Shown here piece by piece: positions 5,542-56,475 of a stretch of DNA of 64,000 nt; positions within the stretch are counted from its first letter, which is position 1; every line of letters starts with the position of its first letter. The notes beneath the pieces are model-generated. The model searched no databases. It saw only the letters and a list, made by a program, of their open reading frames with translations, and was not told the DNA's origin. The stretch comes from Prorocentrum cordatum (lineage: Eukaryota). The DNA lies in NCBI GenBank assembly GCA_963575745.1, contig CAUYUJ010000170.1, positions 186,001 through 250,000 on the forward strand, in the 5' to 3' direction. The position numbers were made by a program, and so were the translations under genes.

Positions 5542-5563
5542 CTTGAGCCAAAATGGCTACGGA
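5542..5563 (-). other. Relic dinoflagellate spliced leader (DinoSL), perfect 22/22
   Basis: The + strand cttgagccaaaatggctacgga is the reverse complement of TCCGTAGCCATTTTGGCTCAAG. Confidence 0.95.
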
Positions 5564-6997: not shown

Positions 6998-8523
6998 CGA
7001 TAGGGGGGGGGACTGGTTCAAGGGGGGGGCATCGACCTGGAATCGGCGTCGGCGACAGGCCTCCGATGGCGAACCCGCACGGGTCTTGGCGGGGTGGGCC
7101 ATCAGGCCGCCATCGGCGATCAGTGGGCGATTGAGGGTCGATCCCCAGACCCGGCAGAAGCCAACACCCTCCCCCACAAAGTGACGAACGCCGTGCCGTC
7201 GGCAGCGAGGCAGACTGGCTGCACCAGCGATAGAACTAAGTGGGGCCACTGAGAGGCGAATTGCTCGGAAGGCGGGAGAGGGGAAAACGGAGGAGAGAGG
7301 GGGCACACCAAAAAAATGACGAACACACCACCCCCGACGTGGTGGGGGCAATCGACGCGCGTCACTGCCCGCAAACAGGGCCGCCGGGGCGCGCAGAAGG
7401 CACCACCGCCGAGACAGGAGTGCTCCGGGCCTCCTCTGTCCGCACACCTCCCTCGTCCTCCCTCCTCCCTCCTCACCTGCCCCTCCTCTCCTCCTCGTCG
7501 TCCTCCTCCTCCTCCTCCTCCTCCTCCTCCTCCGCATCTCTCTCCTCCTCCTCCTCCTCCTCCTCCTCCTCCTCCTCCTCCTCCTCCTCCTCCTCTTCAA
7601 ACCTTTCTCCTCATAGATAGCTCCTCCCTGCCGCACCCCCAGACGAGTCTTTAGGGCGGGCCGGGCGTTTCGCCTGAGACCTCCTCACCGCTTGTGCTCC
7701 TGAAGCTTGCAAGTTGCCGCAAAATCACGGATAGAGGGCGGCTCGATTTCAAAACGGAGCTCTGGCCTTCGCGCCACGCACATTCCCCTGACAAGCTTCC
7801 CTTGCGGATGGAGGGCGGCACGTCTTCAGACTGTGGCTCCCGTTTTCGCGCTGCGCACGTTAGTCGTACAAGTTGAAACGGCTTCAAGGATGGAGGGCAA
7901 TTCCTTTTCAAAATGTGGCTCTCGCAATAGCGCCGCGCACATTCGTCTTGAAAGTATGCAGCATGTTGAAGGATTCGTATGGTTGTAGTCCACGGAGTTG
8001 TGGTTTCGCTCGCTGTAGGATTGTCAGGACGCAGCAGTCACGTTGATTCGCGGCGTTGACGTCTTAGGGATGGTGTTCTGATACGATTTAGGACTGTTCG
8101 CGGCGCTGCGTTCCCCGAAATTGCGTGTTTTGGTCAACTGGGGGCTCCCAAGGCCCTATACACGCCCAGAGAGCCCCGACTCGCCCCAGGATCGCCGGAA
8201 AATCGTCCCAAACGCGTGTAAATGCCTCCACATGGCCCACCACGCTCCCGAGGCGTACCACGCAGGCGCCCCGACGGCCCAGATGGCCCCCGAGAGGCTC
8301 CACGAGGTTTCCACGACGATGCTGTGATGCTGCTTGCCGCGGAGTTCCTCTCTTGTTTCCAACCCTCCTATGGTTGGGTACTCGTTTTGAATAGAGCAAT
8401 GTGGTCGCCCCGTCTTCCTCCTCCTCCTCCTCCTCCTCCTCCTCCTCCTCCTCCCCTCTCCTCCCCTCGTCCTCTCCTGTTTCCTGTGTTCCCCTCTCCT
8501 CTTCTCTCTCGTGCCGTCGGGTT

Positions 8524-8826
8524 TGCGATCTGCGCAACCGTCGCCACTTTCGTGGGCTCCTGGGAGGCCCAGCGGAGGTGGGTCCCACGCGGATCGCCTC
8601 GGTAGCTCGCCGCCCCCTGGGGGGCTTGCGATCTGCGCAACTGTCGCCACTTTCGTGGGCTCCTGGGAGGCCCAGCGGAGGTGGGTCCCACGCGGATCAC
8701 CTCGAGACCTCGCCGCCCCCTGGGGGGCTTGCGATCTGCGCAACTGTCGCCACTTTCGTGGGCTCCTGGGAGGCCCAGCGGAGGTGGGTCCCACGCGGAT
8801 CACCTCGATAGCTCGCCGCCCCCCTG
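8524..8826. repeat. Tandem satellite, 103-bp unit; left part (3 units) of an array split by the LTR element
   Basis: gcgatctgcgcaa recurs at 8525, 8628 and 8731. Confidence 0.95.
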
Positions 8827-9115
8827 TGTCAACCCGATATTACGAAGAGGGGTCTTAGAGCGATGAAAACCGCAACATTTGATATCAGCAATGATGTAAA
8901 TGTATCTGCGAAGATAGGCGATGGTTTGTTGCTCAGCGAGACCTGCAAAAGTATCTACCGATACGCCCAAGCCCGATGGGCCCTGAAACACATTGAGCCC
9001 AAATGGATACGAAAGGACATGTTACCTCTCGCCTGAATGTTCGCACACTCTGCCTGCTTGCTGGCATGCTATGCAGCACTGCTTACAGATCAGCACGGAC
9101 ACGATTTATTTCACA
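8827..9115 (-). repeat. 3' LTR
   Basis: tgtcaacccg...atttcaca; about 25 differences from 17001-17288 by manual alignment. Confidence 0.93.
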
Positions 9116-9409
9116 CTCTTGCACAATTCTTCTGATATGTGCATCTCTGGTCTGAAATCATCTAGACGTGTTAAATCTCACGTAAACTAACTAAGCTGAA
9201 ACCGAGCGCCTGATGCGCTCTATCCTGAAACCAGGCGGATGGCGCGCTTGAAAAGCGAGCCGGCACTTTCCATATGTGCCTCGTGCTCTCGGGCCTGGTC
9301 AGTTGGCTCTTGGCGCTGCAGTGCGAGGCGTGTGTCTCGCAGCACTGCCCTGATGGCACTGCCGTCAGATCGCTTGGTGAATTGATATCCGAGATGCTGG
9401 TCAGTCGGA

Positions 9410-9945
9410 GCCCAAAAGAGAGGCAGCTGGCTGCACTGATCGTCGGCAAAGAATTCGTTACTTATTTCCTCTTCTTAGTAATTCCTTGAGGCCTACCAGG
9501 TCTAGCAAAAGGCGCCGCTCAGACGGGAGCTTGGGGTGGCCGCCTTTGTGCATCATATCGCACAAGCTAGCGCAATCTGTGGCCTGAGCAAGCGGCAACA
9601 AACTCGGTGGGATATCTTCCGGATGAGCAGCATCCGGCATCTCCAGCGAAGCGAAAACACACCGTGTGATCTGAGCACAGCCTAAAGCGTCTACCCCTGA
9701 CACCGCCTCAGCTGCCAAAGAAGATCAGCAAACCCTCTTGATGGTGCCCGATCGCCAATCAACGATTCCCGCTCGCGCCTAATCGCCGCACGCCAGCTTG
9801 ACCTCGGCGACGAACGTCACGTAGCCGGCCTGCGAGCGGATCTTGACCTTCTTGTCCTTGCTGCCCACGATCTCTACGACACCTTCAGGTGGCTCGTCAG
9901 CATTAGCCCAGCTGGCGTCGTGGTAGGTGACCAGGCAAAACGGTC
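9410..9945 (-). pseudogene. pol: Copia RNase H domain (frameshifted)
   Basis: LVTYHDASWAN, RSQAGYV, AEAVSGVDAL, ATDCASL, ERRLLLDLVGLKE motifs. Confidence 0.85.
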
Positions 9946-10059
9946 CACGTAGCTTCGGGACTTCCAGTCCCACGTCCGCGTGCTTCCGCGCCAGCTTGAT
10001 GAGCCGATTCGTCTCGAGCAGGTCCTGGATGGTGGGCTTGTTCTGGGTGTGCTGTCGCA

Positions 10060-10900
10060 TGGCCACTCCAGCTGACAGGTCTGGTCGAGTCTGCCATGAG
10101 AGCCATCCGAGCGCTCCGAGGGCGGAGCGATTATCCGAAAACTCGGCAGGCGTCGCCTCCGCCGACAGCTCCGTCTTGCGCTCCTTGCTGAGCGCGATCT
10201 CCTCGATCGCGTCCGCGAACTCCGTCTGGCGTAGGTGCAAGACCCCTCCTCATCGCGCCACGCCTGCTTGCCACGAAAGGTGAATGGCAAGCCTCTCCAG
10301 TCGCCCCACGGCAGGAACTTGTAGAGCCGGTCGTACAGTCTCGGGTACTTGGGCGAGACGCCCAGCAGCAGGTCGTCCACGCGGGCGACCACCACCGCGC
10401 ACAGCTCCCCGAGCTTGTCGTGCGAATGCTGGCGAAGGCGAAACACGTAGTCACCGAGCTTCTCCTCCACCGCAAGCAAGGTCCTTTTGAGCTTAGCCCA
10501 TCACTGTCACGGTGCGGTGGCTAGCCCAAAGACTCTCTTGAGGATCTTGATCAACTGCTTCGGGTGCAGCCCAGGTAAGCCTTCGCGAGGCTGAGCCATG
10601 CACAACTGCTGGTCGGGCTGCTCGTCGCCTTGCATGAAAGCCACCTCCACGTCCGCTGCGTAAATCTCCAGGTCGAGCCTCTGGCAGATGGTGAAGAACA
10701 GCATAGTTGAGTTGCGGGTGACCGTAGGCGCGTCTGTGCGCAGGTCGCCCTGAGCGAGACGCGGGTCCATGTAGCCCCCGACGCAGAGTCGGGCCTTGGC
10801 CTTGACCGGCAGCGGGTGCTTGTCAGTCCGCAGCGGCGCGATTCTTGTCCCGGTGCACGAACCGGCTGGGCAAGATGAGGTTGGCCTTGACCATGCCACT
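10060..10900 (-). pseudogene. pol: Copia reverse transcriptase (RVT_2-like, frameshifted)
   Basis: KARLCVGG..DAPT, ADVEVAFMQG, KRVFGLATAP, VVARVDDLLLG, LGALGWLSWQTRPDLS motifs. Confidence 0.9.
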
Positions 10901-11589
10901 GACCGCCTCGGACTCCTCGATGGTGAGCACCTGAAATGATCCGTACTTCTGCCACTCGCTCCACTGCTTGGCCGCCGCCTCTCGGTAGAGCTCCCTGTCA
11001 GAGTCCTTGATGGCCCTCCAGCGGATCTCCTCGTCGGCTTGCTTGCCCTTGGTCCTCTCGGTGGCGATGGAGGTCTGCATCGCTTCTCTAGCGCCCTCCG
11101 TCTCGGATCCGGCCGCTGCTCCGCCGTCGGGCACGGCCGCCCGATCGCGCGAGGCTGCCCTCGGGGGCGGTCCTCCGGAGCCCGCGTGCTCCTTGGCGGT
11201 CTGCAGGCGCTTGCGGGCCGGGCCGAGGTTGCCGCTGTCCGTCCCGTCGAAGGTCGCTCTCCGTCGTCGGAACTCGGCGGGGCCGTAGGGCTGCTCCTCC
11301 AAGGCTGACTGAGGTATGTCGGCTCGGTCGGCGGGCAGCACCTCGATCTGCTCCTGGGGCTTCGGGTCCTCAGGAACGTTCAGACACAGGTCGTCGTCGT
11401 CTGGGCTGTCGATGAACTTCCGCCACGCCTGCTCCATCTCGTCTGGCCGGACCTCGGGCTGGCCCGGCTCCGGGCGGATGTCCTCCACCAGGGCCTCCTC
11501 CTGCTCGAGTGAGTCGCGAGCCCTGTTGAGCTCGGCCACGGCCTGGCCGATCTCGTCTCGGCTGTTCGGGAACCAGACGTCGTCCGGAG

Positions 11590-12605
11590 CGAGCGCCTTG
11601 ATGTGCTCTGGGGCCGCCAGCATGGCGCGCCCTCCCAGCGAGACCCAGGTGTTGTTGCCCTGGTGACCGATAACCACGCACGGCCCCCGCCAGATGCCCC
11701 TCTTGGCGTTGCGGTTGTGCTGCTCCTTCTGCTCCTTCATCTTGACTTGGCGGAGCATGTAGCACATCTCGCCCACTGACAAAGGTGTGGCCACGGTGCG
11801 CGCGCGAGCCAGCATGGCTCGTCTGAGCTGGTCGTCGTTCTGCAACCGCATGAACGACTCGCGCGCCGCCGTCCGAATAGCATATCGGCGGCGAATCTTC
11901 TCGTCATTGGCGGCGAGGCTGTGGGCACTGCAATTGGCCGTGTCGCCCACCAGGTCGGCGGGCATCTTGGGATCGCGCCCCAGAACCCGCTGCGGGGGGC
12001 TGAAGCGGGCCCGCCTCCTCAGCGAGTTCTTCGCGCCCGACACCATAATGCCCAGCGTCCGCATCTCGCCCTCGCCCCTGATCGACGAGCGCTCGATCGT
12101 CCTCGCAGCTAGCTCCTTCCACCAGGCTCCCTGACGTTCCACTCGACCGAGATGCCAGTGGGCCTGTCCAGCGACCGGTAGCTGCACCGTGTCGAAAGAC
12201 TGGAACAAATCGCTGAGAACGCCGCCGAATCCCCTCTCCATGTCGACGCCGGCCCAGGAGGCCCAGCACCTTTCGAAGGCCGTAGCGAACTCCTGGCTGG
12301 CGTGGCGACCGATCAGCGTCGCGAAGTGAAAGGTAGTGGCCAAGTCGACGATGCTGAAGTACCAGTAGCTCTTGCCGTCGACGTCCTTGAGCTCGAAGCA
12401 ATCGGAGCCCACGTCGTCGCCGAAATCCTGCACGAAGTGGAAGTGCGCTGGTCTCCTTGCGCTCGGGCGCTGCTGCGAGCGGCGCGCTCCGCAGATCAGC
12501 CCCTTGACGGCCTGCACGGTGGCCTACTTAGTGCCCTTGAGTCGCAGACTGCGGCCCAAGTCTTCATTGGACGGATGGCCCAAGTTAACGTGGAGTCTCT
12601 TGAGC
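11590..12605 (-). pseudogene. pol: Retroviral-type integrase (HHCC + DDE)
   Basis: RLHVNLGHPSN at ~12560-12600, then VGSDCF, IVDLAT, VDMERGF, AHWHLGRVER, FSPPQRVLG, WRGPCVVIG. Confidence 0.9.
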
Positions 12606-12899
12606 GTGGTCAGCTCGGCTGGCTCGCAGCAGGCTGCTGCTTTCTTTGTGGCAGTGATCGCGCCGACCCCGATCCTGCCGCTCAGCCCACAGTCTCGTCG
12701 GCCTTCACGTCGCGAGTGTCGGCGGAGTCGTCTCCGCCGCCCATGGGGTCTGGATCCCCAATAGGCTCGCCCGTCTCTCCCAGGGGCGCGGTATCGTTCG
12801 CGCAGGCGGTGGCCTGTTCCTTCAGCTCCGTCGCGATGAAGGGCAACGAGGAAGCGCCGCAGTCCACCTGGTAGGCGCGAGGCCCACCCTGGCGGCGAA

Positions 12900-13540
12900 T
12901 GATCTGCTCGACGACGCGCACCACCGCTCGGCAGGACTTGGCTGGATAAACGCCAGACTTCCGCACCGCCATGTTGTCCCCCAGCGTCTGGTCGTGGCGC
13001 TTGCGGCTGCAGGTGCGGCGTGGCCGCTCGTACTCCTTATGGGCGACGAGCAACTTGGCGGGGTGCTTGATGAGCCCCCCCGTCTTGTAGCATCGAGCCC
13101 CGTACTCGCACATCACCTGGTACACGCGCTTGTCGGCAAGTAGCTCCATCATGATGCGCTGCGTCCAGATCCGGCTGGTGGCCGGGTTCTCGATCATGGC
13201 GACGCCGCCTGGATCGAGCTGAGACTTGAAGAGGTCGCGGGCCAAGAAAAGGAATGGCCGTTCCGCGCGCCGCAGCCGCCGCAGCGCCTGCTTGCCCGGC
13301 GGCGCGCGGAAGTTGAAGTTTGCAATGTTCGCGTAGTAGGCGCAGGATAGCTCGAGCTCGATCGACGCGAACTTCGGCCTCGATGCGTAGTACCGCTCGC
13401 ACGTCATCTCGAGGTCCTTCTGCTTGCGGAGGTCCCAGCCGAACTTGCGGTGGATCACCTCCGTGGCTGTCATGTTGCGGCGCACTGCCGCCTCGGTAAT
13501 ACCGCCTTCGCCTCCGAAGACCTGCATGGCGTCCACGCCG
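12900..13540 (-). pseudogene. C5 cytosine DNA methyltransferase-like domain inside the copia polyprotein region
   Basis: Ordered motifs QVFGGEGGIT (FxGxG, I), GWDL (III), ELSC (IV-like Cys), MIENP (VI), MCEYG..IKHP (VIII-like), GVYPAKSCRAV (X-like). Confidence 0.72.
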
Positions 13541-14049
13541 TGGCTCTGGACGGCGTAGACCTCCTTGAAGTTCCTCATGTGGCCCGCCACGCCCCGCGCG
13601 GCGCTCGTCGCATACTGAGCGAGCGGCTTGAGAGGTCGGGGCGGCCAGTCCGCAGTGAGCACCGCCTGAAAAGCGAAGGCGCTCAGCAAGCCCGTGACCT
13701 GGTATACAGAGTAGGCCGACGCGCTTGCCCTTCTTGATGCCTGGCCGCAGGCCCGAGGCTGGCGGCTGGTCCTGGCGGCCGCCGCCGCCTAGGCTCTGTC
13801 CTGCGGAGACGCCGCGTCCGTCTCCTGGTCGGTCTCGCCCGCCTTCTGGAAGCCGTGGCCGCCGGTGTCCATCTCGTGCCCCTCGACCGGCCTCGGGCGG
13901 CGGTGACCCGCCGAGCTGCCTTGGCTTGCTGAGGCCCGCTGGGTCGTCGCCGCCGGCGTCGCCGACTCGTCGTCCAGGACCACCTCCTCGGCCATCGCCG
14001 CCTCGATGGCGGTCTTGGCCTTCTCGGGCTCGGGCGGCTTCACTCCGTG

Positions 14050-14460
14050 AGCCTTGACCCACCTGGCGAAGCGCGCCAGGAGCGGGCTCGCCCAGCCGTT
14101 GTTCAGCTCCAGCACCGCCCACCGCGCGTTGCCCAGGTCGTTCTTGAGCACCCAGCGGTAATCCGCAGTCGGGTACTTGCCGAAGCGCATCTTTTCGTTC
14201 CCCGTGATCTGCAAGCTTGGATGAGCCACGTTGCTCGAGGCGCCGCTGACCGCGTCCTCGACCTTCCAGCCCTGCAGGCGCTGCCTGAGTTCCGGCACGG
14301 TGGCGTGCTGGTCGAAGTCGATGTCCTTCGCCCAGCGGAACTCCTGGGGCTCGTGCGCGTGCATCTTGCCGAGCCCGGGGATGTCCTGCGCCTTCTTGTC
14401 CTGTCCCTGGGCCCTCAGCGCGCGCGGGATGACTCGGAGCTGGTCGCACGTCGCGTCGCG
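14050..14460 (-). pseudogene. Additional polyprotein segment with SAP/HeH-like TVPELRQRL and an FGKY motif
   Basis: ORF 13789-15114: ..HATVPELRQRL..NEKMRFGKYPTADYRWVLKNDLGNARWAV. Confidence 0.45.
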
Positions 14461-15189
14461 CACATCCAACTCGTAGCTTGCCACCCCCGCCTGTGGGCCC
14501 CCCATCCGCATGCTAGAGATCGCCGGCAGGCGGGAAGTACTCGGCGTCGGCGTGTTCGAGTAGCTGGCCTCCCGGTTCGTCGCCCTGGGAGATATCATAC
14601 ATTTCGGCTGCGACGGAGGCATGAGCGCCGGCCGCCGGTTCGTGAAAAGCTGCGGTGGCTGGATCTGCCACGGCACGCGTCGTAAAAGCTGTTGGGGCCT
14701 GAGATGAACTCCATTCGGATGGCTGCGGTGATGATGTAGATTGATGACTCCGTGCTGATTGCTGATATCGTAGCTTTGTTTGCTGCTGAAATCGAACGCG
14801 TTGTGGCCGAGGGTCGCTGTCTGGTTTAGCTCCTCGCCCAGTATGATCGGTTTGCATGATCTGTGCTGCGCTGGCGGGCGCAGGAAGAACTCCCCATGCC
14901 TCATCCTCCGACCCCGACGATGACTGACGCGATGGAATGCATGCGCACATGGCCTGGCGCAATTGCTGCTCGAACAGTTCAGCGCTATCGAGCTCGTCGC
15001 AGTCAGTCTCCGACTGAGACTCGTCGGCCTCCGAGACGACCCCTTGGTCGCAGCGCTCGGGCGCTGCCAGCTTGGCAGCGCTGGCCACGGCTGTCTCAGC
15101 GTGGTAAGTCGCAAAAGGATGCAGCCGGATCTCGGTCTCGGTGTCCGAGACGTCCGACACGTGCTTGCACCTTGGCGCGACGCCTGTAA

Positions 15190-15570
15190 TCTCGAGCGTC
15201 GGGTGTCCGGCGCGGCCCAGGCCCATCTGGATGCCGTGCTCGTTGACGGACTTGATGTCCAGCTTGTTGCCAGCCGCGTGGTAGAGAATGTCCAATTCGC
15301 TGTGGGCCTGGCGGCTGAACAGTCCCGGCACGGCGCTGCGCACGATGCTCACACGCACGGTGAAGGCCTTGCCGTTCACCGAGCAGGGAATCAGCGCCGA
15401 CTTGCGGCTGTGCACAAGCTTGGACGCTCCGGAGCGGAGAGACTCCTTCTTCGGGCACTCGATCGGCTGGATGTTGAAGGCCGCCAGCTTCTTCTTGATA
15501 TCGTTGTACCAGTCCAGGCCGCCGACGCAACGCGAGCAGGCGGTGTCGAAAGTCAGCTCGCCGCCCGACT
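15190..15570 (-). pseudogene. pol: Retropepsin-like aspartic protease
   Basis: LTFDTACSRCVGG catalytic motif; downstream VPGLFSR..ELDI. Confidence 0.8.
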
Positions 15571-15899
15571 CCTCGAGTAGGTCTTCGACGCTGATGTAGA
15601 TGTGCGCCGAACCCGTCGCGGCCATGAGGCATTGGTTGTCCTTGTTGGTGTAGAACGAGGCGGCCGCCACCTCCTCGGGCACGTTGGCCTGCTGGCGCAT
15701 GTTCGTCCAGTCGATGTCGTGCAGCGCGCTGCCGAAGGTGACCTTCCTCCGGTCTCGCGCCGCTCTCAGCTGCTCGTGCTGGTAGACCGCCGCGACCGTC
15801 ATCTCCGCGACGTGGGGCTCCTGCGCGTCGCCGGCCCCGTCGTTCGTAGTCAGGTTCGTAGTGTGACTTCCCTTTCGAGGGATGTCGGCCCTCGCGTTG

Positions 15900-16883
15900 G
15901 GTTCGTTCTTCTTGGGGCACTGCGGGCCGCCGCGCCAGTGGCCCTTCTGGCCACGAGCTCCACATTGCGTCCTCGCCTTCATCTCGGCGATCTTGGCGTC
16001 GCCCTTATTCGGCGGGCGCCCGCCGTCTCGCTTGGCGAAGTAGCCGCGCGCCTGCTTGGCCTCCTTTAGCTTGTCCTTGGCGCGCACCATCTTCTTGGTG
16101 AAGGAAGCCACCTGCTCCTCCGCCTCGTCTATCACGTCCTGTAGATCGTCCCGCAAGTCGTCGCCGTAGCCTTCGGAGCTGTCGGTGGACGCGCCGTCGT
16201 TCTCGGCCTCGTCGTAGGCCTCCGTGGCGCACACCTTCTTGTGGTCCTTTTCTGTGACCTCCGTAGCCGCCTTTGTCGTGGTGATGCTCCTCGTGGTCGT
16301 CCACGACCGATGCTTTGGGCGAATTGATCATGAGCTGCTCCTGGATCTTCGTCGGATTGAACTTGTTGCCCACGCCGTTGAGCACGCTCGCCGCGTGCTC
16401 CGGTGGCAAGCGGACGCCCTTGATGTACAGGTCGGCCAAGACCTCGTCGGGCACCTCTATGTCTTTGGCCTTCAGTTTCGTCGCAATGCCTCTGAAGCGA
16501 TTTCTGAAATGGCGGATCTCCTCGAACTTGTGCCGGATGCACGCCGGCTTCACGAATGTCCCCAGGAGCGCTGGTAACTCCAGTACCTCGATCTCGGGAA
16601 AGCGCTTCCCGAGGCCCTCCAAGAAAACCTCCACCGAACCGTCGCCCTTGATGGTCTCTAGGTCGAGCTCCTCGCACGCCTCCTCGGCCTTGCCCTTGAG
16701 GCTGGCCAAAAGCGTCGCGCCCTGCTTGGGCAGCTTCATCTCGGTGCCAATCTGCCAGACGGCGACCTCCCGGCGGAACTTCATTATCGTCTTGTTCGTG
16801 CCGTCGAAGACGGGTACGGGAATCTTGCCCCCGCTGTTCTTGTCCTCGCCGCTGGCTGCAGCGGCTTCTCCAATAGTCGCCAT
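15900..16883 (-). pseudogene. gag: Gag (frameshift near 16240) with degenerate zinc knuckle
   Basis: ATG ~100 nt after the PBS; VPVFDG..FRREVAVW..LLASLKGKA; CGARGQKGHWRGGPQC knuckle. Confidence 0.8.
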
Positions 16884-16986
16884 GCTTGCGGCAACTCCGA
16901 ATGAGAGGTATCAATCGCAATCACGAGCTTGTAGTGCGCCTGCGTATTGACTCTGCGAAGTCGCGCACGTTGCCGCGGTCGAGTTA

Positions 16987-16999
16987 GCCCCTGCTACCA
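16987..16999 (-). promoter_or_regulatory. Primer binding site, tRNA-iMet type
   Basis: TGGTAGCAGGGGC lies 1 nt inside the 5' LTR end; eukaryotic initiator tRNAs commonly end ..CUGCUACCA. Confidence 0.85.
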
Positions 17000-17000
17000 A

Positions 17001-17288
17001 TGCAGACCCGATATTGCGAAGAGGGGTCTTAGAGCGATGGAAACCGCAAGGTTTGATATCAGCAATGATGTAAATGTGTATGCGAAGATAGGCGACGGTT
17101 TGTTGATCAGCGAGACCTGCAAAGGTATCTACCGATACGCCCAAGCTCAAGGGCCCTGCAACGAATTGAGCCCAAATGGATACGGAAGGACATGTTACCT
17201 CTCGCCTGAATGTTCGTACACTCTGCTTGCTTGCTGGCATGCTATGCTACACTGCTTACAGATCAGCACGGACACCATATATTTCACA
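17001..17288 (-). repeat. 5' LTR
   Basis: tgcagacccg...atttcaca, adjacent to the PBS and TSD. Confidence 0.93.
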
Positions 17289-20244
17289 CCCTGGGGGGCT
17301 TGCGATCTGCGCAACTGTCGCCACGTTCGTGGGCTCCTGGGAGGCCCAGCGGAGGTGGGTCCCACGCGGATCACCTCGAGACCTCGCCGCCCCCTGGGGG
17401 TCATGCGATCTGCGCGACTGTCGCAACTTTCGTGCGCTCCTGGGAGGCCCAGAGGAGGTGGGTCCCACGCGGATCACCTCGAGACCTCGCCGCCCCCTGG
17501 GGGGCTTGCGATCTGCGCAACTGTCTCCACTGTCGTGGGCTCCTGGAAGGCCCAGCGGAGGTGGGTCTCACGCCGATCACCTCGAGACCTCGCCGCCCCC
17601 TGGGGGGCTTGCGATCTGCGCAACTGTCGCCACTTCCGTGGGCTCCTGGGAGGCCCTGCGGAGGTGGGTCCCACGCGGATCACCTCGAGACCTCGCCGCC
17701 CCCTGGGGGCTTGCGATCTGCGCAACTGTCGCCACTTCCGTGGGCTCCTGGGAGGCCCAGCGGAGGTGGGTCCCACGCGGATCACCTCGAGACCTCGCCG
17801 CCTCCTGGGGGCTTGCGATCTGCGCAACTGTCCCCACTTCCGTGGGCTCCTGGGAGGCCCAGCGGAGGTAACTGTCGCCACTTTCGTGGGTTCCTGGGAG
17901 GCCCAGCGGAGGTGGGTCCCACGCAGATCACCTCGAGACCTCGCCGCCCCCTGGGGGGCTTGCGACCTGCGCAACTGTCGCCATTTTCGTGGGCTTCTGG
18001 GAGGCCCAGCGGGGGTGGGTCCCACGCGGACCACCTCGGTAGCTCGCCGCCCCCTGGGGGGCCTGCGATCTGCGCAACTGTCGCCACTTTCGTGGGCTCC
18101 TGGGAGGCCCAGCGGAGGCGGGTCCCACGCGGATCACCTCGAGACCTCGCGGTGCCCTTGGGGCTGCGATCTGCGCAACTGTCGCCATGTTCGTGGGCTC
18201 CTGGGGGGCCCAGCGGAGGTGGGTCCCACGCGGATCACCTCGAGACCTCGCCGCCCCCTGGGGGGCTTGCGATCTGCGCAACTGTCGCCACTTTCGTGGG
18301 CTCCTGGGAGGCCCAGCGGAGGTGGGTCCCACGCAGATCACCTCGAGACCTCGCCGCCCCCTGGGGGGGCTTGCGACCTGCGCAACTGTCGCCATTTTCG
18401 TGGGCTTCTGGGAGGCCCAGCGGAGGTGGGTCCCACGCGGATCACCTCGGTAGCTCGCCGCCCCCTGGGGGGCTTGCGATCTGCGCAATTGTCTCCACTG
18501 TCGTGGGCTCCTGGGGGGCCCAGCGGAGGTTGGTCCCACGCGGATCACCTCGAGACCTCGCCGCCCCCTGGGAAGCTTGCGATCTGCGCAACTGTCGCCA
18601 TGTTCGTGGGCTCCTGGGAGGCCTAGCGGAGGTGGGTCCCACGCGGATCACCTCGGTGCCTCGCGGTGCCCTGGGGGCTTGCGATCTGCGCAACTGTCGC
18701 CACTTTCGTGGGCTCCTGGGAGGCCCAGCGGAGGTGGGTCTCACGCGGATGACCTCGAGACCTCGCGGTGCCCTGGGGGCTGCGATCTGCGCAACTGTCG
18801 CCACTTTCGTGGGCTCCTGGGAGGCCCAGCGGAGGTACGTCCCACGCGGATCACCTCGAGACCTCGCGGTGCCCTGGGGGTTGCGATCTGCGCAACTGTC
18901 GCCACTTTCGTGGGCTCCTGGGAGGCCCAGCGGAGGAAGGTCCCACGCAGATCACCTCGAGATCTCGCGGTGCCCTAGGGGCTGCGATCTGCGCAACTGT
19001 CGCCACTTTCGTTGGCTCCCGGGAGGCCCAGCGGAGGTGGGTCCCACGCGAGTCACCTCGAGACCTCGCGGTGCCCTGGGGTCTGTGATCTGCGCAACTG
19101 TCTCCACGTTCGTGGGCTCCTGGGAGGCCTAGCGGAGGTGGTCCCACGCGGATCACCTCGAGACCTCGCGGTGCCCTGGGGGCTGCGATCTGCGCAACTG
19201 TCGCCACTTTCGTGGGCTCCTGGGAGGCCCAGCGGAGGTGGGTCCCACGCGGATCACCTCGAGACCTCGCGGTGCCCTGGGGGCTGCGATCTGCGCAACT
19301 GTCGCCACTTTCGTGGGCTCCTGGGAGGCCCAGCGGAGGTGGGTCCCACGCGGATCACCTCGAGACCTCGCGGTGCCCTGGGGGCTGCGATCTGCGCAAC
19401 TGTCGCCACTTTCGTGGGCTCCTGGGAGGCCCAGCGGAGGTGGGTCCCACGCGGATCACCTCGAGACCTCGCGGTGCCCTGGGGGCTGCGATCTGCGCAA
19501 CTGTCGCCACTTTCGTGGGCTCCTGGGAGGCCCAGCGGAGGTACGTCCCACGCGGATCACCTCGAGACCTCGCGGTGCCCTGGGGGCTGCGATCTGCGCA
19601 ATTGTCGCCACTTTCGTGGGCTCCTGGGAGGCCCAGCGGAGGTGGGTCCCACGCGGATCACCTCGAGACCTCGCGGTGCCCTGGGGGCTGCGATCTGCGC
19701 AACTGTCGCCACTTTCGTGGGCTCCTGGGAGGCCCAGCGGAGGTGGGTCCCACGCGGATCACCTCGAGACCTCGCGGTGCCCTGGGGGCTGCGATCTGCG
19801 CAACTGTCGCCACTTTCGTGGGCTCCTGGGAGGCCCAGCGGAGGTGGGTCCCACGCGGATCACCTCGAGACCTCGCGGTGCCCTGGGGGCTGCGATCTGC
19901 GCAACTGTCGCCACTTTCGTGGGCTCCTGGGAGGCCCAGCGGAGGTGGGTCCTACGCGGACCACCTCGAGACCTCGCGGTGCCCTGGGGGCTGCGATCTG
20001 CGCAACTGTCGCCACTTTCGTGGGCTCCTGGGAGGCCCAGCGGAGGTGGGTCTCACGCGGATCACCTCGAGACCTCGCGGTGCCCTGGGGGCTGCGATCT
20101 GCGCAACTGTCGCCACTTTCGTGTGCTCCTGGGAGGCCCAGCGGAGGTGGGTCCCACGCGGATCACCTCGAGACCTCGCGTTGTCCTGGCGGGCTGCGAT
20201 CTGCGCAACTGTCGCCACGTTCGTGGGCTCCTGGGAGGCCCAGC
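17289..20244. repeat. Tandem satellite, ~29 units of 103-bp and 101-bp variants
   Basis: Unit gcgatctgcgcaactgtcgccactttcgtgggctcctgggaggcccagcggaggtgggtcccacgcggatcacctcgagacctcgc...; no unique spacers. Confidence 0.97.
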
Positions 20245-20989
20245 AGAGTTACGCCTTACGAGTTGCCGCTGCTCTTCTTTCTGCGCTCTTCTGAGTTCAC
20301 TGATGGGTGCTCTTCTTCCGCACTGCGGGTTTTTCAGCATGTCCGTCAGCATTGAGTGGTCCCGAATGTAACCACCACATGTATAGAATGGGTTGGGTAC
20401 GTCGCAGGGTAATTTGTGTGTAACAGGACGTACTAGAGATGCAACGGCCAGCGCTGCACATGAGCTGTTACCTTGGGCTGCAGCCCGCTGGAATTGCTGC
20501 TGCCATGGGCGGCAGAGTCACACAACTACTCGAGCAGTAATAATCTGTGCACACGGCACTGGAGTGATCAGTCCTGGAGTGCTGTCCTGAACGGTTGTTC
20601 AATTTCCCGTTTGTTCTTGGTTGTTCCTGTTGGATTCAACCTTTTCGGCCTACTGACGCTCCACAGCAGCCCCAAAGGGCGAAAGCTCGCCCCAAGACGA
20701 TTTCAGAAGCCCCCTCCAGGGCGCCACACTGACCAAGAGGCCCCAAAGACGCCACAGGAGACTTGCAGGACAGCCCCAAGAAGGCACCACATCGCTAAAA
20801 CATCACTGCCAGACGCTCATCAAGCCTTCCAGGTGGCACCACCACTAATGACGACGATGACGACGACGACGATGACGACGACGACGCGCGAAAGAAGCAC
20901 AGTACGGCGGATGAGCAGGACATGGGATGCAACTGGCACTCGGTGATGGGACGGCGTTGCGGATCGGCAGGAGTGTCTCAGGACGTCTG

Positions 20990-24900: not shown

Positions 24901-27029
24901 TCCAGCGGACCACCTTCATGATCGATATCAGGTTGGAGTGCGCCAGCTCGTCCTCGCCGTGGTCCTGCTCGATCAATGACCGCAGAAAGGTCCCCGACTT
25001 CTGGTAGAGCTGCGACGTCCTGCTAGACTCGGTCATCTTCGCGCACGCGTCTTCGGTCGTCGTCTTGCTCTTCGTCTTCACCACCCCGTTCTCCTTGTCG
25101 TCGTCGCTGTCGGAGTCCTGCAGGTCCGCAAGGAACAGCCGCGAGCTCCTCCTGCTCCTCAGGATGCCCTTCAGGCCCCGAAAGATGGTGACGGTGTTGT
25201 TGATGTCCCTCAGGACGGTGGACGCCCACAGGAACTGGATGAGCATGACCAGGGTCTCGGCCAGCCAGGCCTGCTCCACGCTGAACTTCGAGATGTTCGA
25301 GTACAGGTCCTGCCAGGAGAGCCCAGAATCGAATCGATAAGTCGGATCGGCGATCGAAATGAATCGGATCGGCGGAAATCGGCAGCCGAGTCGGGAAAAG
25401 TCGAATCGGCAGACATCGGCAGGCTAAAAGGCCTCCAATAAGAAATCAGAGCCCAAGTCGGAATCTCAAGTCGAATCGAATCGGAATCGGAAGCCATCGA
25501 AATCGAATCGAATCGAATCGGAGGGATCGAAACGAGCCCTGTCCTGCTGCCCGCCAGCCAAGTGGAGCTTGGCCTCCTGCGTGCACACCTGCGACGCCAT
25601 GGACCGCTGAGACACCCTGTCCGCGTAGTCCGCGTGGTGCGCGGCGCCGAGCCGGAACTGCAGCAGGCCCTGGAGGACCTCGGGGGAAATCGCCTGGTCG
25701 TCTTCCAGCATCACCTCGACGATGTAGACGAACGCAACCTGCAGGCAGATGTTCATCAGCCAGCAGACGCTCACCAGAACGGAGCACGAGGGCCCGACGG
25801 CGGGGATGAGGACGAAAAACATCGAGTCCCAGACGGAAGAGTTCGAGCGGTACATGCCGCCCTTGTCCAGCATGCTGGCGGTGACCGCGATAAGCTTGCC
25901 CTCGCGCATCGTGTTCTCGCCCTCGTCGCTGTCCGAGCTGAGGGTCGACATCATGGTGGGCACCGGAGGAGGAGGAGGAGGAGGAGGAGGGAGGAGGGAG
26001 GAGGAGGAGGAGGAGGAGGAAGAATAGGAGAAGGAGGAGGGGGAGGAGGAGAAGGAGGACGAGGAGGAGGAGGAGGAGGAGGGCGGAGGAGGAGGAGGAG
26101 GAGGAGGAGGAGGAGGAGGAGGTGGGCACCGCGACCATGCCCAGCGCTTCGCCCGCCATGGGGCCCAGGTGCGGCGCCGCGCGCGGCGTCCCGCTGGGCG
26201 ACGCGGCACTGCTGGCGCCGTTCTCGCCCGCGCTCCTGCCGATCACGCTCGGCCCAGGCGCCTTCGACCCGCTCCTCGCGGAGGGGCTGACGGCCAGGTC
26301 GTCTGGCGCGTCGATGTCGAAGGTGTGCTCACCTTCACTGTCGCTCTGCAGTCGGTTGTTCGGCTCGTCGTCTTCCTCCGTCTCCTCGGTCCCCGGGATG
26401 CGGAATGGGTTGGTCTTCGCATCGCCGTACGCCGACGTGGCCTGGGACTCGGTGCTGTCCCTGACGCTGAAACGCATGGATGTGCCGCGGGCGAGGGGAG
26501 TCGCATCGCCGTACGCCGACGTGGTGTTCTGGGAGTCGGTGCTGTCCTTGAGGCTGAAAGGCATGGCTGTGCCGTGGGCGCTGTCCAGGGTGTTTTTCCT
26601 CCCCAGCGTCGTGGTCGAGCCCCTGCCGGAGCGATGCATCGCGGACGTCCGCGACCTGTCAAGGCTGCTCGACGTGCCGTCACGCTTGATCTTCTTGACC
26701 TTGTCCTTGAGCTTGGTCAGGTGCTCCTTCAGCTTGGTGTTGGTCTGCTCGACGATGCTCATGATGTCCGCCCGGTTGGCGACGGTCTGGTTGCGAACCC
26801 TGACGAGCTCCTCCTCCTGTGACTTTATTATCTGCTGCTGAGCTTTCAACTGGCTGTCGAATGACCGCACGACGACCTCGAGGACCTCGGCCACCTGGTT
26901 GCCAGACAATGGCAATGCGGTCTTGAGCGCGGCGATGAGGCTGGTCAGGTTCGGATCCTGGCCGGCACTCGTCTCGGAGTCTTGCATTTCTGGCCACTCT
27001 TGCCGCGCGCCCGGGCTGTCCGCCGCCAT
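21995..27029 (-). CDS. Large multi-pass membrane protein with Cys-rich extracellular region, about five DDxFxAxxMCCACGG repeats and a SEA-like domain; segments 27029-26121, 25954-25544, 25309-21995; possibly inactivated by the GGA insertion
   Basis: 1094-aa ORF with several hydrophobic segments; frame continues upstream after removing 25310-25543 (GGQQ|DLYSNISKF) and the GGA insertion (VAVPT|MMSTL); relic SL ~125 nt upstream of the ATG. Confidence 0.8.
25314..25541. mobile_element. 228-bp element (family E, CAGG..CCTG ends, gaatc-rich) forming intron 25310-25543
   Basis: 6-bp TSD tcctgc (25308-25313, 25542-25547); second copy of the same length at 38869-39096. Confidence 0.88.
25965..26120. 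repeat. (GGA)n tract inserted in the CDS, flanked by the 10-bp direct repeat ggtgggcacc
   Basis: ggtgggcacc at 25955-25964 and 26121-26130. Confidence 0.9.
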
Positions 27030-27153: not shown

Positions 27154-27175
27154 CTTGAGCCAGAACGGCTACGGA
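27154..27175 (-). other. Relic DinoSL (20/22) upstream of the membrane-protein gene
   Basis: Reverse complement reads TCCGTAGCCGTTCTGGCTCAAG. Confidence 0.9.
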
Positions 27176-28830: not shown

Positions 28831-29350
28831 AACTTTCCAGGAATCCATGATCCGTGATCCCCTCGACACTGACAAGCGGAACGCGGAGGCGGCGGTGTTG
28901 ATCCGCAATAAGGGTTCGGAGAGCTCCAGTGGAGTGCATCAAAAAGCAGATTTCCGGACCGCCGAGAGACCCACTCCCGTCCTGCCTCCCCCGCTTCACA
29001 AGCTGGCAGGGCCTTGCGTGATTCCCCGCACACTTGGAGGAGAGCGGGGGCGAAATATTTCCGTGCGCGTTTCAGCTTGAGCGACAATCAAAAACGGGTC
29101 TCACGCCAGGTGACGTAGCGACCTTACGCGGCGGCTTACGCGGGCTGCCAGCGCGGTACGCTGCATTGGAGACGAGAGCTCTCACGCGCGACCTTACGCG
29201 GTCAGCTTACGCGCCAATGTCGGCGCAAACGACTCCGTTGTGTCTTGCGTCGCTCACCTGTCTGCGGATACGGATTCCATGCCCCAGGCTTGCGAAACCA
29301 GGCGCGAGCCCCATGCTGTTGGCCAGGGAGGTTCGGCCCTCCCCAGACTC

Positions 29351-29555
29351 TTGGAGGCGTGGAAATGGGCACCAACACCAAGACAAGGGGCTGCCTCCAC
29401 AGGGGGAAGATGATCCTAGATTTTCGGTGTTGGTGGTAATAGTTCGGTCACCTTGGAAGCCAGAATATTACCACCATCACCGAGATCGGGATCCTCTTCC
29501 GTCGGTGGAGGCACACCGCCGATATTGGTGTTGGTGTCAATCTCTAGGCTTGCGA
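29351..29555. mobile_element. MITE family A, copy 3 (a more diverged partial copy at ~31190-31340)
   Basis: Similar to 1546-1748 over its full length. Confidence 0.8.
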
Positions 29556-38868: not shown

Positions 38869-39096
38869 CAGGAGAGCCCGGAATCGAATCGATAAGTCGC
38901 ATCGGCGATCGAAACGAATCGGATCGGCGGAAATCGGCAGCCGAGTCGGGAAAAGTCGGATCGGCAGACATCCGCAGGCCAGTAGGCCTCCAATAAGAAA
39001 TCGGAGCCCAAGTCGGAATCTCAAGTCGAATCGAATCGGAATCGGAAGCCATCGAAATCGAACCGAATCGAATCGGAGGAATCGAAACGAGCCCTG
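38869..39096. mobile_element. Family E element, second (non-exonic) copy
   Basis: Same ends and length as 25314-25541; no clear TSD here. Confidence 0.85.
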
Positions 39097-51076: not shown

Positions 51077-51176
51077 NNNNNNNNNNNNNNNNNNNNNNNN
51101 NNNNNNNNNNNNNNNNNNNNNNNNNNNNNNNNNNNNNNNNNNNNNNNNNNNNNNNNNNNNNNNNNNNNNNNNNNNN
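51077..51176. other. Assembly gap (100 N)
   Basis: Run of N. Confidence 1.
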
Positions 51177-54493: not shown

Positions 54494-56475
54494 GACAGCG
54501 GGCACCCACGACGGCGCAAGACGGCGCAAGGAAGCTCCCCAAGACGGCTCCGAGATGGCTCGGGAAGCCTCGACGCGGTTCTGAGGAGTGCTGGCGGAGC
54601 CCACGGCATCCACAGAACAGCCTCTGGGAACCAGCTTGGAAACCTGCACCCAACGCTCGCAGCGCCGCTCAGTGGAGGGCGCGATGCTGCGCGGAGCTGC
54701 GCGTTGTTGCGCGGCTGCGTTACTCTGGCGAGCTGCGAACAGATTTCCAAGAAGCTCCTGTGGATCGGACACGTACAGAAGGCACAAAATCCACCCCCAT
54801 AGTCAGCATTACGACCAGCGAAGCCGTTTAGTAATTAAGCGCGCCCGAGGAAGGAATCGGACAGGGCGGGGCTGCTTAGTAAACGCCCAGGGCCGTTTAG
54901 TAGACGCCAATTGTCGGGGTCTCGGTGGTTTCTCCTCCCTTGGATGTCAGTGCAAGGACACCAACCGTGGCGCTCCTGCTAGGGCAACGTCTTCCAGGCA
55001 TCGAGAAGCTGACGTGCGGTGAAGGGCCAGCGGAAATAAAGCGTGAGGGCTGTGCAGGGGGAGGCCGGAGTAAGTAGACCTCTGCCCTCCAAGAGGTGTG
55101 AGCTTGTTCTAGGCGGCGAGCGAATGGGGGAACAGTTCGGGTTCGAGGTTCGAGGTTCGAGGTTTTCGGACGTCTTCGTTGATTCTCGGCGGTTTTCCAG
55201 CCTCGAGATGCTTGTCAGCAGCTGCGCCTCGCCGAGGGCGTTCCTGGGGTGCCCAGATCGTCCCGAACGGCCGCTGGAGACCTGACTTTTGACCCTAAAA
55301 CCACATTCGGCGGCGGGCGAGGGGGGGAAGTGAGAAGGAGAAGGCCTTCTCAGAAGGCGGCGGGACTTCTTAAAAGGCCCCCTGGGCCTTCTGAGAAGTC
55401 TCCTGTGTCGTAGGGAAGGCTTCGAAAGAAAACGTCTCAGAAGGCCCCGGGACTTCCGAGCCTTCCGAGAATCGGGGGTACGCAAACATGGATTGGCGAT
55501 CCATGGATTTGGCGCGCGGTCGCCTGATCCATGGATCGGGGGAGGTGCCCTCCCCAGAATGCGGCCGCTGCCGCCTCGCCCGGCGGTGGAAATCCGTGGA
55601 ACCGGGACGCGTCGCTAATCCACGCCCCCTTGATCCATGTTTGCGATCGCCTGAGAGGAGGCACCCTCCTCCTCACTTCCCCCCCGGGCTCGCCGCCGAT
55701 GCCTGGGGCGCAAAGGACCTCTGGGAGGAGCCAGCCACCGACCCGCGCCGACCCTGGCCGGGCACGCCCCCTTGGCCTCGGAGCTGCCCGGCCAGGGTCG
55801 TGTCGTGTCGTGTGCGGTTGGCGTCCTCTCCGGCGAAGGTTAAAAATCACCGAGTGGCCGTTCTCGAAGGGCGGGGCTCGAGCCAAAATGGACGCGGTGG
55901 AAGCAGAAGAAGAAGAAGAACAAACAAAAAACGCACAGACATAATCGTTTGGCGCTCCGCGCGGATTGCTTGGATCCGCGCCGACCCCACTCCCTGGCGC
56001 GCGGAGCGTGCCAGGGGCGGCGCCGGAGACGCCGCCAGGGGGGGCCCAGCGCGGATCCAAGAAATCCGCGCGGAGCGCTTAAAGTTTATGCTTATGTGGC
56101 TTTCGCTCCGAGGAAGGAAGAAGAGACAAGCCCCCGCAATCCTGGCGACGGGGTGTGATGCGCGCGCGTCTCCTGGCAAATCCTTCCTCCTTCTACCTCT
56201 CCCCTCTCCGACAACGGCGACAACGACGACGACGACGACGACCCAAAATATGTTCCCCAAGCTCTGAACGTGTCCCCCGACTCCTTCCCGTGTCCATCCT
56301 GGCCAGGTTTCACCCCGGATCGACTTCTCACGGTCAGGGCCCGAAACGGGCCCACCAGAGAACGAAAACAACGAAAAGCCTCATCGACCCTTGATCTTCG
56401 ATCCCGCGCGATGACGGCGGCGGCGACGTCCGACGAAAAACGGCGACGGCGACGGCGTCGGCGACCACGACGACC

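Follow-up and report, generated by a model that had tools for sequence, protein, structure and literature searches.

We found that a frameshifted Ty1/copia-type long terminal repeat (LTR) retrotransposon in the genome of Prorocentrum cordatum carries, in both of its LTRs and in the sense of the element, a 22-nt stretch that closely resembles the dinoflagellate spliced leader (DinoSL). The element lies on the minus strand, at positions 8827-17288, of the 64,000-nt (64-kb) stretch of DNA analyzed here, which corresponds to positions 186,001 to 250,000 of contig CAUYUJ010000170.1 (assembly GCA_963575745.1) and is called the window throughout. Dinoflagellate nuclear mRNAs are generally considered to receive a 22-nt leader by trans-splicing, and the motif in the LTRs is either derived from this leader or, at minimum, similar to it far beyond chance. 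It is also a family trait, inherited as DNA with fixed deviations from the canonical sequence.

A DinoSL-like motif shared by both LTRs

On the minus strand, positions 17165-17186 in the 5′ LTR read TCCGTATCCATTTGGGCTCAAT and match the canonical DinoSL, given as DCCGUAGCCAUUUUGGCUCAAG (10.1101/783902; PMC7245778), at 19 of 22 positions, and the corresponding stretch in the 3′ LTR (8992-9013) reads TTCGTATCCATTTGGGCTCAAT and matches at 18. Both 22-mers occupy LTR positions 103-124, in LTRs of 288 and 289 nt. The deviations at leader positions 7, 14, and 22 (T7, G14, and T22) are common to the two copies, and the 3′ LTR copy has an additional one at position 2. When the window was scanned for the leader with at most three mismatches, three places were found (5542, which is exact, 17165, and 27154), against 0.00 expected from 100 dinucleotide-preserving shuffles of the window. 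A looser scan, allowing up to six mismatches over leader positions 2-22, returned six places, all of them on the minus strand, which is the strand of the retrotransposon. The motif had first been proposed by an automated reading of the letters of the window (the original prediction), and our analysis confirmed its degree of match, its sense orientation and presence in both LTRs, the same three deviations in the two copies, and the letters that it had given after the 5′ LTR motif, TCGTTGCAG and then G.

In each LTR, the motif is followed by a 9-nt spacer with an acceptor-like YAG end and then by GGCCC, so that the base after the spacer is a G in both (TCGTTGCAG in the 5′ LTR and GTGTTTCAG in the 3′ LTR). 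The dinucleotide directly after the 5′ LTR motif is TC and not the GT donor of a spliced-leader RNA gene, and the GT found after the 3′ LTR copy arises only through substitution. Rfam families had no match anywhere in the 64-kb window. As in a relic DinoSL, the similarity exceeds chance and the motif lies in the sense of the transcription unit; its location is different, in that it stands 102 nt inside each LTR and not at the 5′ boundary of a retroposed copy. Moreover, the DNA copy of the leader in the LTRs is full length and not 5′-truncated.

Other leader-like sequences occur in the window, all on the minus strand. The exact 22-nt DinoSL at 5542-5563 lies between a long GGA-rich repeat on its 5′ side and CCGCCTGCC, not a GT donor, on its 3′ side, and has the appearance of a relic leader from a retroposed gene. 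Two further leader-like 22-mers, at 27154-27175 and 55877-55898, have two and four mismatches, respectively, over positions 2-22, with TAAGTG after the first.

To place the motif in its family, contigs of the element were sought in public sequencing runs; a single run was listed as containing part of the element, as DNA contigs, and no RNA run was among those listed. Run X1 (DNA contigs, share 0.16, 80% likeness threshold) yielded 3034 contigs that were 80-99% like the element (420 at 99% or above, 783 at 95-99%, 883 at 90-95%, and 948 below 90%), which points to an abundant related family in this run; run X2 gave no contigs on the element and run X3 gave nine short pieces. One X1 contig, with a word depth of 63, has 36 other letters in place of window positions 17158-17227. 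In the sense of the element, this LTR variant reads TTCGTAACTATTTGGGCTCAAT, then CCTTTAAG, then GGCCCT. It retains the 3′ 13 nt of the motif, including deviations 14 and 22, has a different base in place of G7, and is 34 nt shorter than the window LTR in the stretch upstream of the motif. The original prediction had also held that the motif predates the insertion, and this is borne out by the deviations shared between the two LTRs and by the recurrence of two of them in the X1 variant. The differences listed for X1 contigs (40 of 1045) include none in the motif and say nothing on its variation. An AG directly before GGCCC is kept in the three LTR variants, where TCGTTGCAG, GTGTTTCAG, and CCTTTAAG are each followed by G and the spacer measures 9, 9, and 8 nt. 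This is how a kept 3′ splice site would look, and three sequences are no proof of one.

Leader-like stretches in related copia elements

A search with a polyprotein profile (alignment A1) retrieved 78 metagenome loci with 24-40% protein identity, 54 of which came from one metagenome. For one of them, L009, every organism name among 120 listed protein relatives was that of a dinoflagellate (Cladocopium, Symbiodinium, Effrenium, and Polarella). Many of the loci are contigs of ∼8 kb in which the two ends overlap within the LTR, and both LTRs are present in five loci. The LTRs of these relatives start with TGTGAAT, end in CA, and are followed by T and TGGTAGCGGAGC; they are therefore built like the window LTR. 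We rebuilt 25 complete LTRs, representing 22 BLAST-independent clusters, as a discovery set, and used 17 further independent LTR pieces as a hold-out, giving 39 in total, the majority of which stem from loci of one metagenome. Leader positions 2-22 were aligned to them with gaps (match +1, mismatch -1, gap -2/-1), and permuted leaders served as controls (Table 1).

Table 1. Summed scores of gapped leader alignments to related LTRs
LTRs	Alignment	Sense	Antisense	Permuted leaders	Permuted leaders reaching
22, discovery	local	172	144	140.5 ± 9.7	3/2000
22, discovery	full-length	132	97	85 ± 14	2/2000
17 pieces, hold-out	local	125	110	106.7 ± 7.2	19/2000
17 pieces, hold-out	full-length	87	78	61.9 ± 10.4	27/2000
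All 39	full-length	219	175	146.8 ± 21.8	1/2000

For all 25 complete LTRs, the local sum was 196, compared to 162 ± 5.4 for internal sense windows of the same loci and 172 ± 5.6 for dinucleotide-shuffled LTRs, with none of 1000 reaching 196 in either control. A score of at least 8 was found in sense in 9 of the 39 LTRs (L008, L057, L061, L018, L025, L010, L017, L020, and L059) and in antisense in 3, while permuted leaders gave a mean of 0.8 and none of 2000 reached nine. The best relative, L008, has TCCGTGGCCACTGTAGGCACAAG, which matches the leader at 18 of 22 positions with one insertion; in others, the stretch starts with TCCG or TCTG and ends in CAAG or AGG. Overall, the relatives keep 14-19 of the 22 leader letters, mostly with insertions or deletions, and the young relatives L016, L018, and L025, whose LTR pairs are ∼99% alike, have the same noncanonical stretch in both of their LTRs. 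As judged from these alignments, related elements carry weaker leader-like counterparts of the motif at the matching mid-LTR place.

Six relatives (L003, L007, L008, L010, L013, and L017) have LTRs that are otherwise unalignable and share a block, (T)TTCAGGCACAAG followed by G. By full-length alignment, this block is the 3′ half of the leader-like stretch, for which the canonical sequence is TTTTGGCTCAAG. A candidate conserved acceptor in group-I relatives, CAG followed by GCACAAGG, was dropped, as full-length alignment likewise placed it in the 3′ half of the leader-like stretch.

The position of these stretches was compared to that of a putative polyadenylation motif. Of the 15 LTRs no longer than 180 nt, 13 had exactly one AAAAG/C when their first 10 nt were set aside, and in 12 of these 13, the best leader-like stretch ended 6-55 nt upstream of it, where random placement gave a mean of 5.7 (P = 3.7e-4). 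AAAAG/C has been described at the exact polyadenylation site of Amphidinium, Karlodinium, and Lingulodinium genes (PMC2488372). In six of the seven relatives that combine a score of at least 8 with a complete LTR, the distance from the start of the stretch to the LTR 3′ end is 82-98 nt; the window LTR is longer, with a motif that starts 185 nt from the 3′ end, and it has no AAAAG/C, only an AAAC at LTR position 188. A leader-like stretch followed within a few tens of bases by a poly(A) motif is the layout expected of a stretch at the start of R, and the motif may mark the U3/R border, where R has its 5′ end, or lie within ∼30 nt of it. R would then begin at the motif, or at the AG that follows it by 9 nt, and extend as far as a poly(A) site lying further downstream in the LTR. 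In the short LTRs (139-180 nt; L008, L009, L013, L016, L017, L020, L022, L024, L025, L028, L061, and others), AAAAG/C stands at about two thirds of the length, and where it is single, it may mark the R/U5 border.

Origin of the motif

We give about even chances to a history in which the motif is a true DinoSL descendant, fixed by capture of the element's own RNA at or near the U3/R border of a multicopy Ty1/copia LTR family. In such a history, the genomic RNA of an ancestral element would have been trans-spliced to the leader inside the LTR, and reverse transcriptase would have copied the leader at the end of the minus-strand strong-stop DNA. The leader end would have been retained at the first strand transfer, which would have placed it at the junction of U3 with R and thus in both LTRs of the offspring elements. 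Today, the leader is passed on as DNA and is not renewed from the leader of the cell in each cycle, since the three deviations are shared by both LTRs and the stretches of L016, L018, and L025 are noncanonical. Either the RNA that is reverse transcribed would not be trans-spliced at the encoded copy, or the transfer would precede the copying of the leader. How the leader was captured, its assignment to the U3/R border, and whatever use it may have today are inferred. Two of the three deviations abolish the AG dinucleotides of the leader itself (positions 6-7 and 21-22). Together with the YAG followed by G 8-9 nt downstream, these losses would be compatible with splicing at the downstream AG, which would leave the relic in the outron, and also with a transcription start at the relic without splicing.

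Several observations weigh against this capture history. Under simple capture of a leader joined to an exon, nothing should separate the leader from the sequence downstream, and here 9 nt (8 in the X1 variant) intervene. The shared deviations and the noncanonical stretches of the young relatives show that the leader was not rewritten in the most recent cycles and leave a role of the motif in strand transfer of trans-spliced RNA unproven, capture would require reverse transcriptase to extend a mismatched 3′ end, and the start and end of R are placed from DNA contigs. In the relatives, a near-canonical leader was present in none of the 39 independent LTRs, and a gapless scan of the 78 loci (603,479 nt) with up to five mismatches gave three stray hits, none in an identified LTR. 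Gapless sums were equal in the two orientations (454 sense versus 452 antisense), and far rotations of the leader, which break its center, lost the signal (sums of 163-168 versus 196); part of the excess thus comes from the T-run and the GCCA..TGGC dyad of the leader. The excess of sense over antisense is confined to gapped alignments and to the upper tail, the gapless upper tail being sense-specific (at least 14 of 21 matches in five sense and no antisense LTRs). When whole loci were scanned locally in windows, a score of at least 11 was reached at 25 places in sense and at 19 in antisense, which is not telling by itself. Finally, the clade-level idea was formed after some of the same LTRs had been viewed, so that the 17-piece hold-out is the one set free of this bias, and it lends modest support (∼0.01).

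A different possibility is that the motif is a working mimic of the leader. Transcription would start at its first base, or the motif would be a start-site element, leaving R intact and giving leader-dependent translation without trans-splicing; in nematodes, a leader sequence can serve as an internal promoter element. In favor of a mimic, the motif has its full length, unlike the 5′-truncated form typical of re-spliced relics, and it lies in sense where R should begin. Degenerate counterparts also persist in otherwise unalignable LTRs (22 BLAST clusters among 25), and the loss of AG at positions 6-7 and 21-22 would avert splicing inside the leader; G7 is changed in the X1 variant too, to a different base. 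However, stretches that keep 14-19 of 22 letters, often with insertions or deletions, would serve poorly as a sequence-specific mimic, and the acceptor-like YAG followed by G that is kept 8-9 nt downstream would, if used, remove the mimic altogether. The trans-spliced leader may also carry a special cap, which a transcribed leader would not have. We consider such a mimic unlikely. The original prediction had left the choice between an ancestral capture and a leader mimic of the element's own; a sense-oriented, ancestral family trait is retained from it, and the strong form of the mimic is weakened by the degenerate stretches of the relatives.

It is also improbable, in our view, that the motif is a functionless passenger in U3, captured once from the end of a leader-bearing host cDNA or mRNA by template switching or nested retroposition and unrelated to the RNA ends of the element. 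U3 regions of LTRs are known to acquire foreign sequence, relic leaders are common in this genome, with three more within the 64 kb (5542, which is exact, 27154, and 55877), and the motif, passed on as DNA with its deviations fixed, differs between the LTRs at about the rate (1/22) of the whole LTR (25/289). Such a single capture leaves unexplained the sense leader-like stretches upstream of AAAAG/C in unrelated-looking LTRs of related elements, as well as the retention of the 3′ 13 nt in the X1 variant despite the 34-nt length difference upstream. In addition, no extended likeness beyond the leader was found between the LTR and the flanks of the other relics of the window (best local score 20, ∼37 columns). 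We assign a very low probability to an origin unconnected with the leader, in which a conserved cis element of the LTR, such as a dyad-symmetric protein-binding site of the GCCA...TGGC type, merely resembles it. A dyad would account for the equal gapless similarity of the relatives in both orientations and for the loss of signal in the center-breaking rotations. It would not account for the match of the window motif at 19 of 22 letters, for which chance gives an expectation of 0 and which includes the nonsymmetric ends TCCGTA and CTCAA, or for the several relatives that also match the ends TCCG and CAAG.

The element, its surroundings, and known counterparts

The LTR pair is 91.3% identical (25 differences in 289 columns) and has the TG...CA ends of copia elements. 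CAGGG is present on both flanks as a 5-bp duplication, and the flanks rejoin into one satellite unit. The tandem array of this satellite, ∼3.4 kb in all, is split by the retrotransposon insertion. One base beyond the 5′ LTR, TGGTAGCAGGGGC starts at the place where the relatives have TGGTAGCGGAGC; no tRNA genes were found in the 64-kb window, so there is no local tRNA to compare with it. The coordinates of the features are given in Table 2.

Table 2. Features of the retrotransposon and of its insertion site (window coordinates)
Feature	Position	Strand	Basis
DinoSL-like 22-mer, 5′ LTR, 19/22	17165..17186	-	mismatch scan, shuffles
DinoSL-like 22-mer, 3′ LTR, 18/22	8992..9013	-	leader scan
9-nt spacer TCGTTGCAG, acceptor-like YAG end, then GGCCC (5′ LTR)	17156..17164	-	sequence; putative acceptor use
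9-nt spacer GTGTTTCAG, acceptor-like YAG end, then GGCCC (3′ LTR)	8983..8991	-	sequence
5′ LTR, 288 nt, TGTGAAAT...CTGCA	17001..17288	-	repeat comparison
3′ LTR, 289 nt, TGTGAAAT...TGACA	8827..9115	-	repeat comparison
Target-site duplication CAGGG, 5′ side	17289..17293	-	sequence
Target-site duplication CAGGG, 3′ side	8822..8826	-	sequence
Primer-binding-site-like TGGTAGCAGGGGCTAAC, one base after the 5′ LTR	16983..16999	-	sequence; matching tRNA not seen in window
Weak polypurine-like stretch AGAAGAATTGTGCAAGAG before the 3′ LTR	9116..9133	-	read from sequence only
Remains of gag-protease-(methyltransferase-like)-integrase-reverse transcriptase-RNase H polyprotein	9226..16871	-	colinear mapping of relative P0007
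Cytosine-5 methyltransferase-like domain, between protease and integrase	12853..13713	-	predicted fold
101-103-bp satellite, left part, interrupted by the element	8416..8826		repeat comparison
101-103-bp satellite, right part	17289..20253		repeat comparison

An intact relative of 2378 aa, P0007, maps colinearly onto the element, with residues 4-2377 corresponding to 16871-9226 on the minus strand. The mapping falls into seven pieces with 65-88% identity and in several frames, which shows that the window copy is frameshifted. In P0007, Pfam places rve at residues 1326-1398 and RVT_2 at 1846-2024; a weak match to RVT_2 (E = 4.7e-4) was the sole Pfam match on the open reading frames (ORFs) and read-through frames of the window. 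Against solved structures, the family profile found a retroviral integrase core (E = 1.5e-5) and a nucleocapsid zinc knuckle (E = 0.02). With the integrase upstream of an RVT_2-type reverse transcriptase, the element is of Ty1/copia type. Its integrase ORF is 99% identical to a protein named Prorocentrum cordatum in its source and 58-85% identical to 20 further proteins, 18 from Prorocentrum cordatum and two unnamed European Nucleotide Archive (ENA) proteins, and the family is therefore multicopy. The Symbiodinium "RE1/RE2" proteins are ∼30% identical to the integrase region. No match was found in the viral contigs scanned for the LTR 22-mer and the integrase ORF, in the metagenome contigs scanned for the integrase ORF, or in the genome contigs scanned for an LTR 20-mer.

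Between protease and integrase, a 287-aa stretch is open in the window and conserved from the Prorocentrum-type family to Symbiodiniaceae-type relatives (also in P0007, L005, L008, and L013). As a methyltransferase, it had no Pfam match, and a PDB profile search with alignment A1 found the integrase core and zinc knuckle only. A structure model built from alignment A3 (mean predicted local distance difference test (pLDDT) score 77.7) matched Dnmt2, MET1, DNMT1, and DNMT3 in Foldseek with probabilities of 0.99-1.0 and template modeling (TM) scores of only 0.31-0.34. In VIA-align, all 50 entries returned were C5 or DNA-modification methyltransferases (Z 9.9-11.5, 164-223 residues aligned, root-mean-square deviation 3.5-5.3 Å). 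The model thus predicts a class I methyltransferase fold of the C5 type. Alignments A1 and A3 show conserved stretches with FGGE, PC, and ENP, which may be the catalytic motifs I, IV, and VI, and the window copy has ELSC where relatives have LPC. C5-methyltransferase-type domains in retrotransposon polyproteins, also of dinoflagellates, have been described for SymbioLINE-Dnmt, SymbioDIRS-Dnmt3, and KnitGypsy-Dnmt3 in 2018, and that paper states that Symbiodinium Copia elements are without any DNMT domain (PMC5890265). In contrast to those elements, the predicted domain here lies in a copia polyprotein, was missed by Pfam, and was recognized by its predicted fold only.

Elsewhere in the window, 228-bp direct repeats at 25314-25541 and 38869-39096 are 95% identical and lie 13.5 kb apart. 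They were considered as an LTR pair and rejected, being AATCG-rich low-complexity sequence. Three copies of a ∼206-bp repeat, 91-95% identical, are found at 1543-1748, 1911-2112, and 29348-29555, and an assembly gap of 100 N spans 51077-51176.

Links between retroelements and spliced leaders take other forms in other lineages. SLACS, CZAR, and CRE of trypanosomatids and NeSL-1 of nematodes are non-LTR retrotransposons that insert into spliced-leader RNA genes and are flanked by the split gene, whereas here an LTR element sits in a satellite and has the leader-like sequence inside its own LTR. In dinoflagellates, relic leaders that stem from reverse transcription of trans-spliced RNA are established (PMC7245778; 10.1101/783902). 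The retrogene relics of Slamovits and Keeling 2008, as these two sources present them, resemble our motif in being a DNA-encoded 22-nt leader, in sense, from reverse-transcribed trans-spliced RNA. Those relics border a retroposed host gene copy on its 5′ side, typically in a form that is 5′-truncated after re-splicing, unlike the window motif, which is full length, lies inside a repeat that is remade at both ends in each cycle, and is inherited by a transposon family. A host gene with a genome-encoded leader at the exact splice site has also been reported, together with the suggestion of a leader-bearing message made without trans-splicing (PMC2488372). That case likewise has leader-like DNA where the leader of the mature RNA would be; it concerns a host gene in a tandem array, in contrast to the LTR of a mobile element with 9 nt between motif and acceptor-like AG. 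Dinoflagellate Ty1/copia elements are known (PMC5776459) and appear also in PMC3942190. SmTCL1-4 of Symbiodinium microadriaticum belong to the same superfamily and host phylum and share the integrase upstream of reverse transcriptase, RNase H, and LTRs, but the main text of PMC5776459 describes neither a leader-like LTR motif nor a methyltransferase-like domain for them. The literature available to us, including portions of the review PMC11453091, contained no account of a leader-like motif within dinoflagellate LTRs. Fixation of a relic leader in the LTR of a retrotransposon would apparently be a new form of the known relic-leader phenomenon.

Reverse transcription of LTR retrotransposons depends on an identical R at both RNA ends, and trans-splicing near the RNA's 5′ end should therefore be a problem for an LTR element. 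A leader copy fixed at the start of R, if true, would show how elements solved or bypassed this problem, and it would make the U3/R border of dinoflagellate LTRs, which is otherwise unmapped, recognizable in the sequence. An encoded leader can be told from a trans-spliced one by the three diagnostic letters and the 9-nt spacer, which makes the question testable on full-length cDNA. A bolder proposal, which we put forward tentatively and regard as doubtful, is that copia elements of dinoflagellates have incorporated the host leader into the LTR, where it forms the first 22 nt of R. If this were true, the genomic RNA could begin with a home-made leader and have no need of trans-splicing; alternatively, the strong-stop DNA of an RNA trans-spliced at the encoded copy or beside it, ending in anti-leader sequence, could find a match at the RNA 3′ end for the first transfer. 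Either use would represent an adaptation of an LTR retroelement to a trans-splicing host and a direct link to the machinery that makes leader-tagged retrogenes. The motif is also relevant to the question of which reverse transcriptases give rise to the many leader-tagged retrogenes in dinoflagellates.

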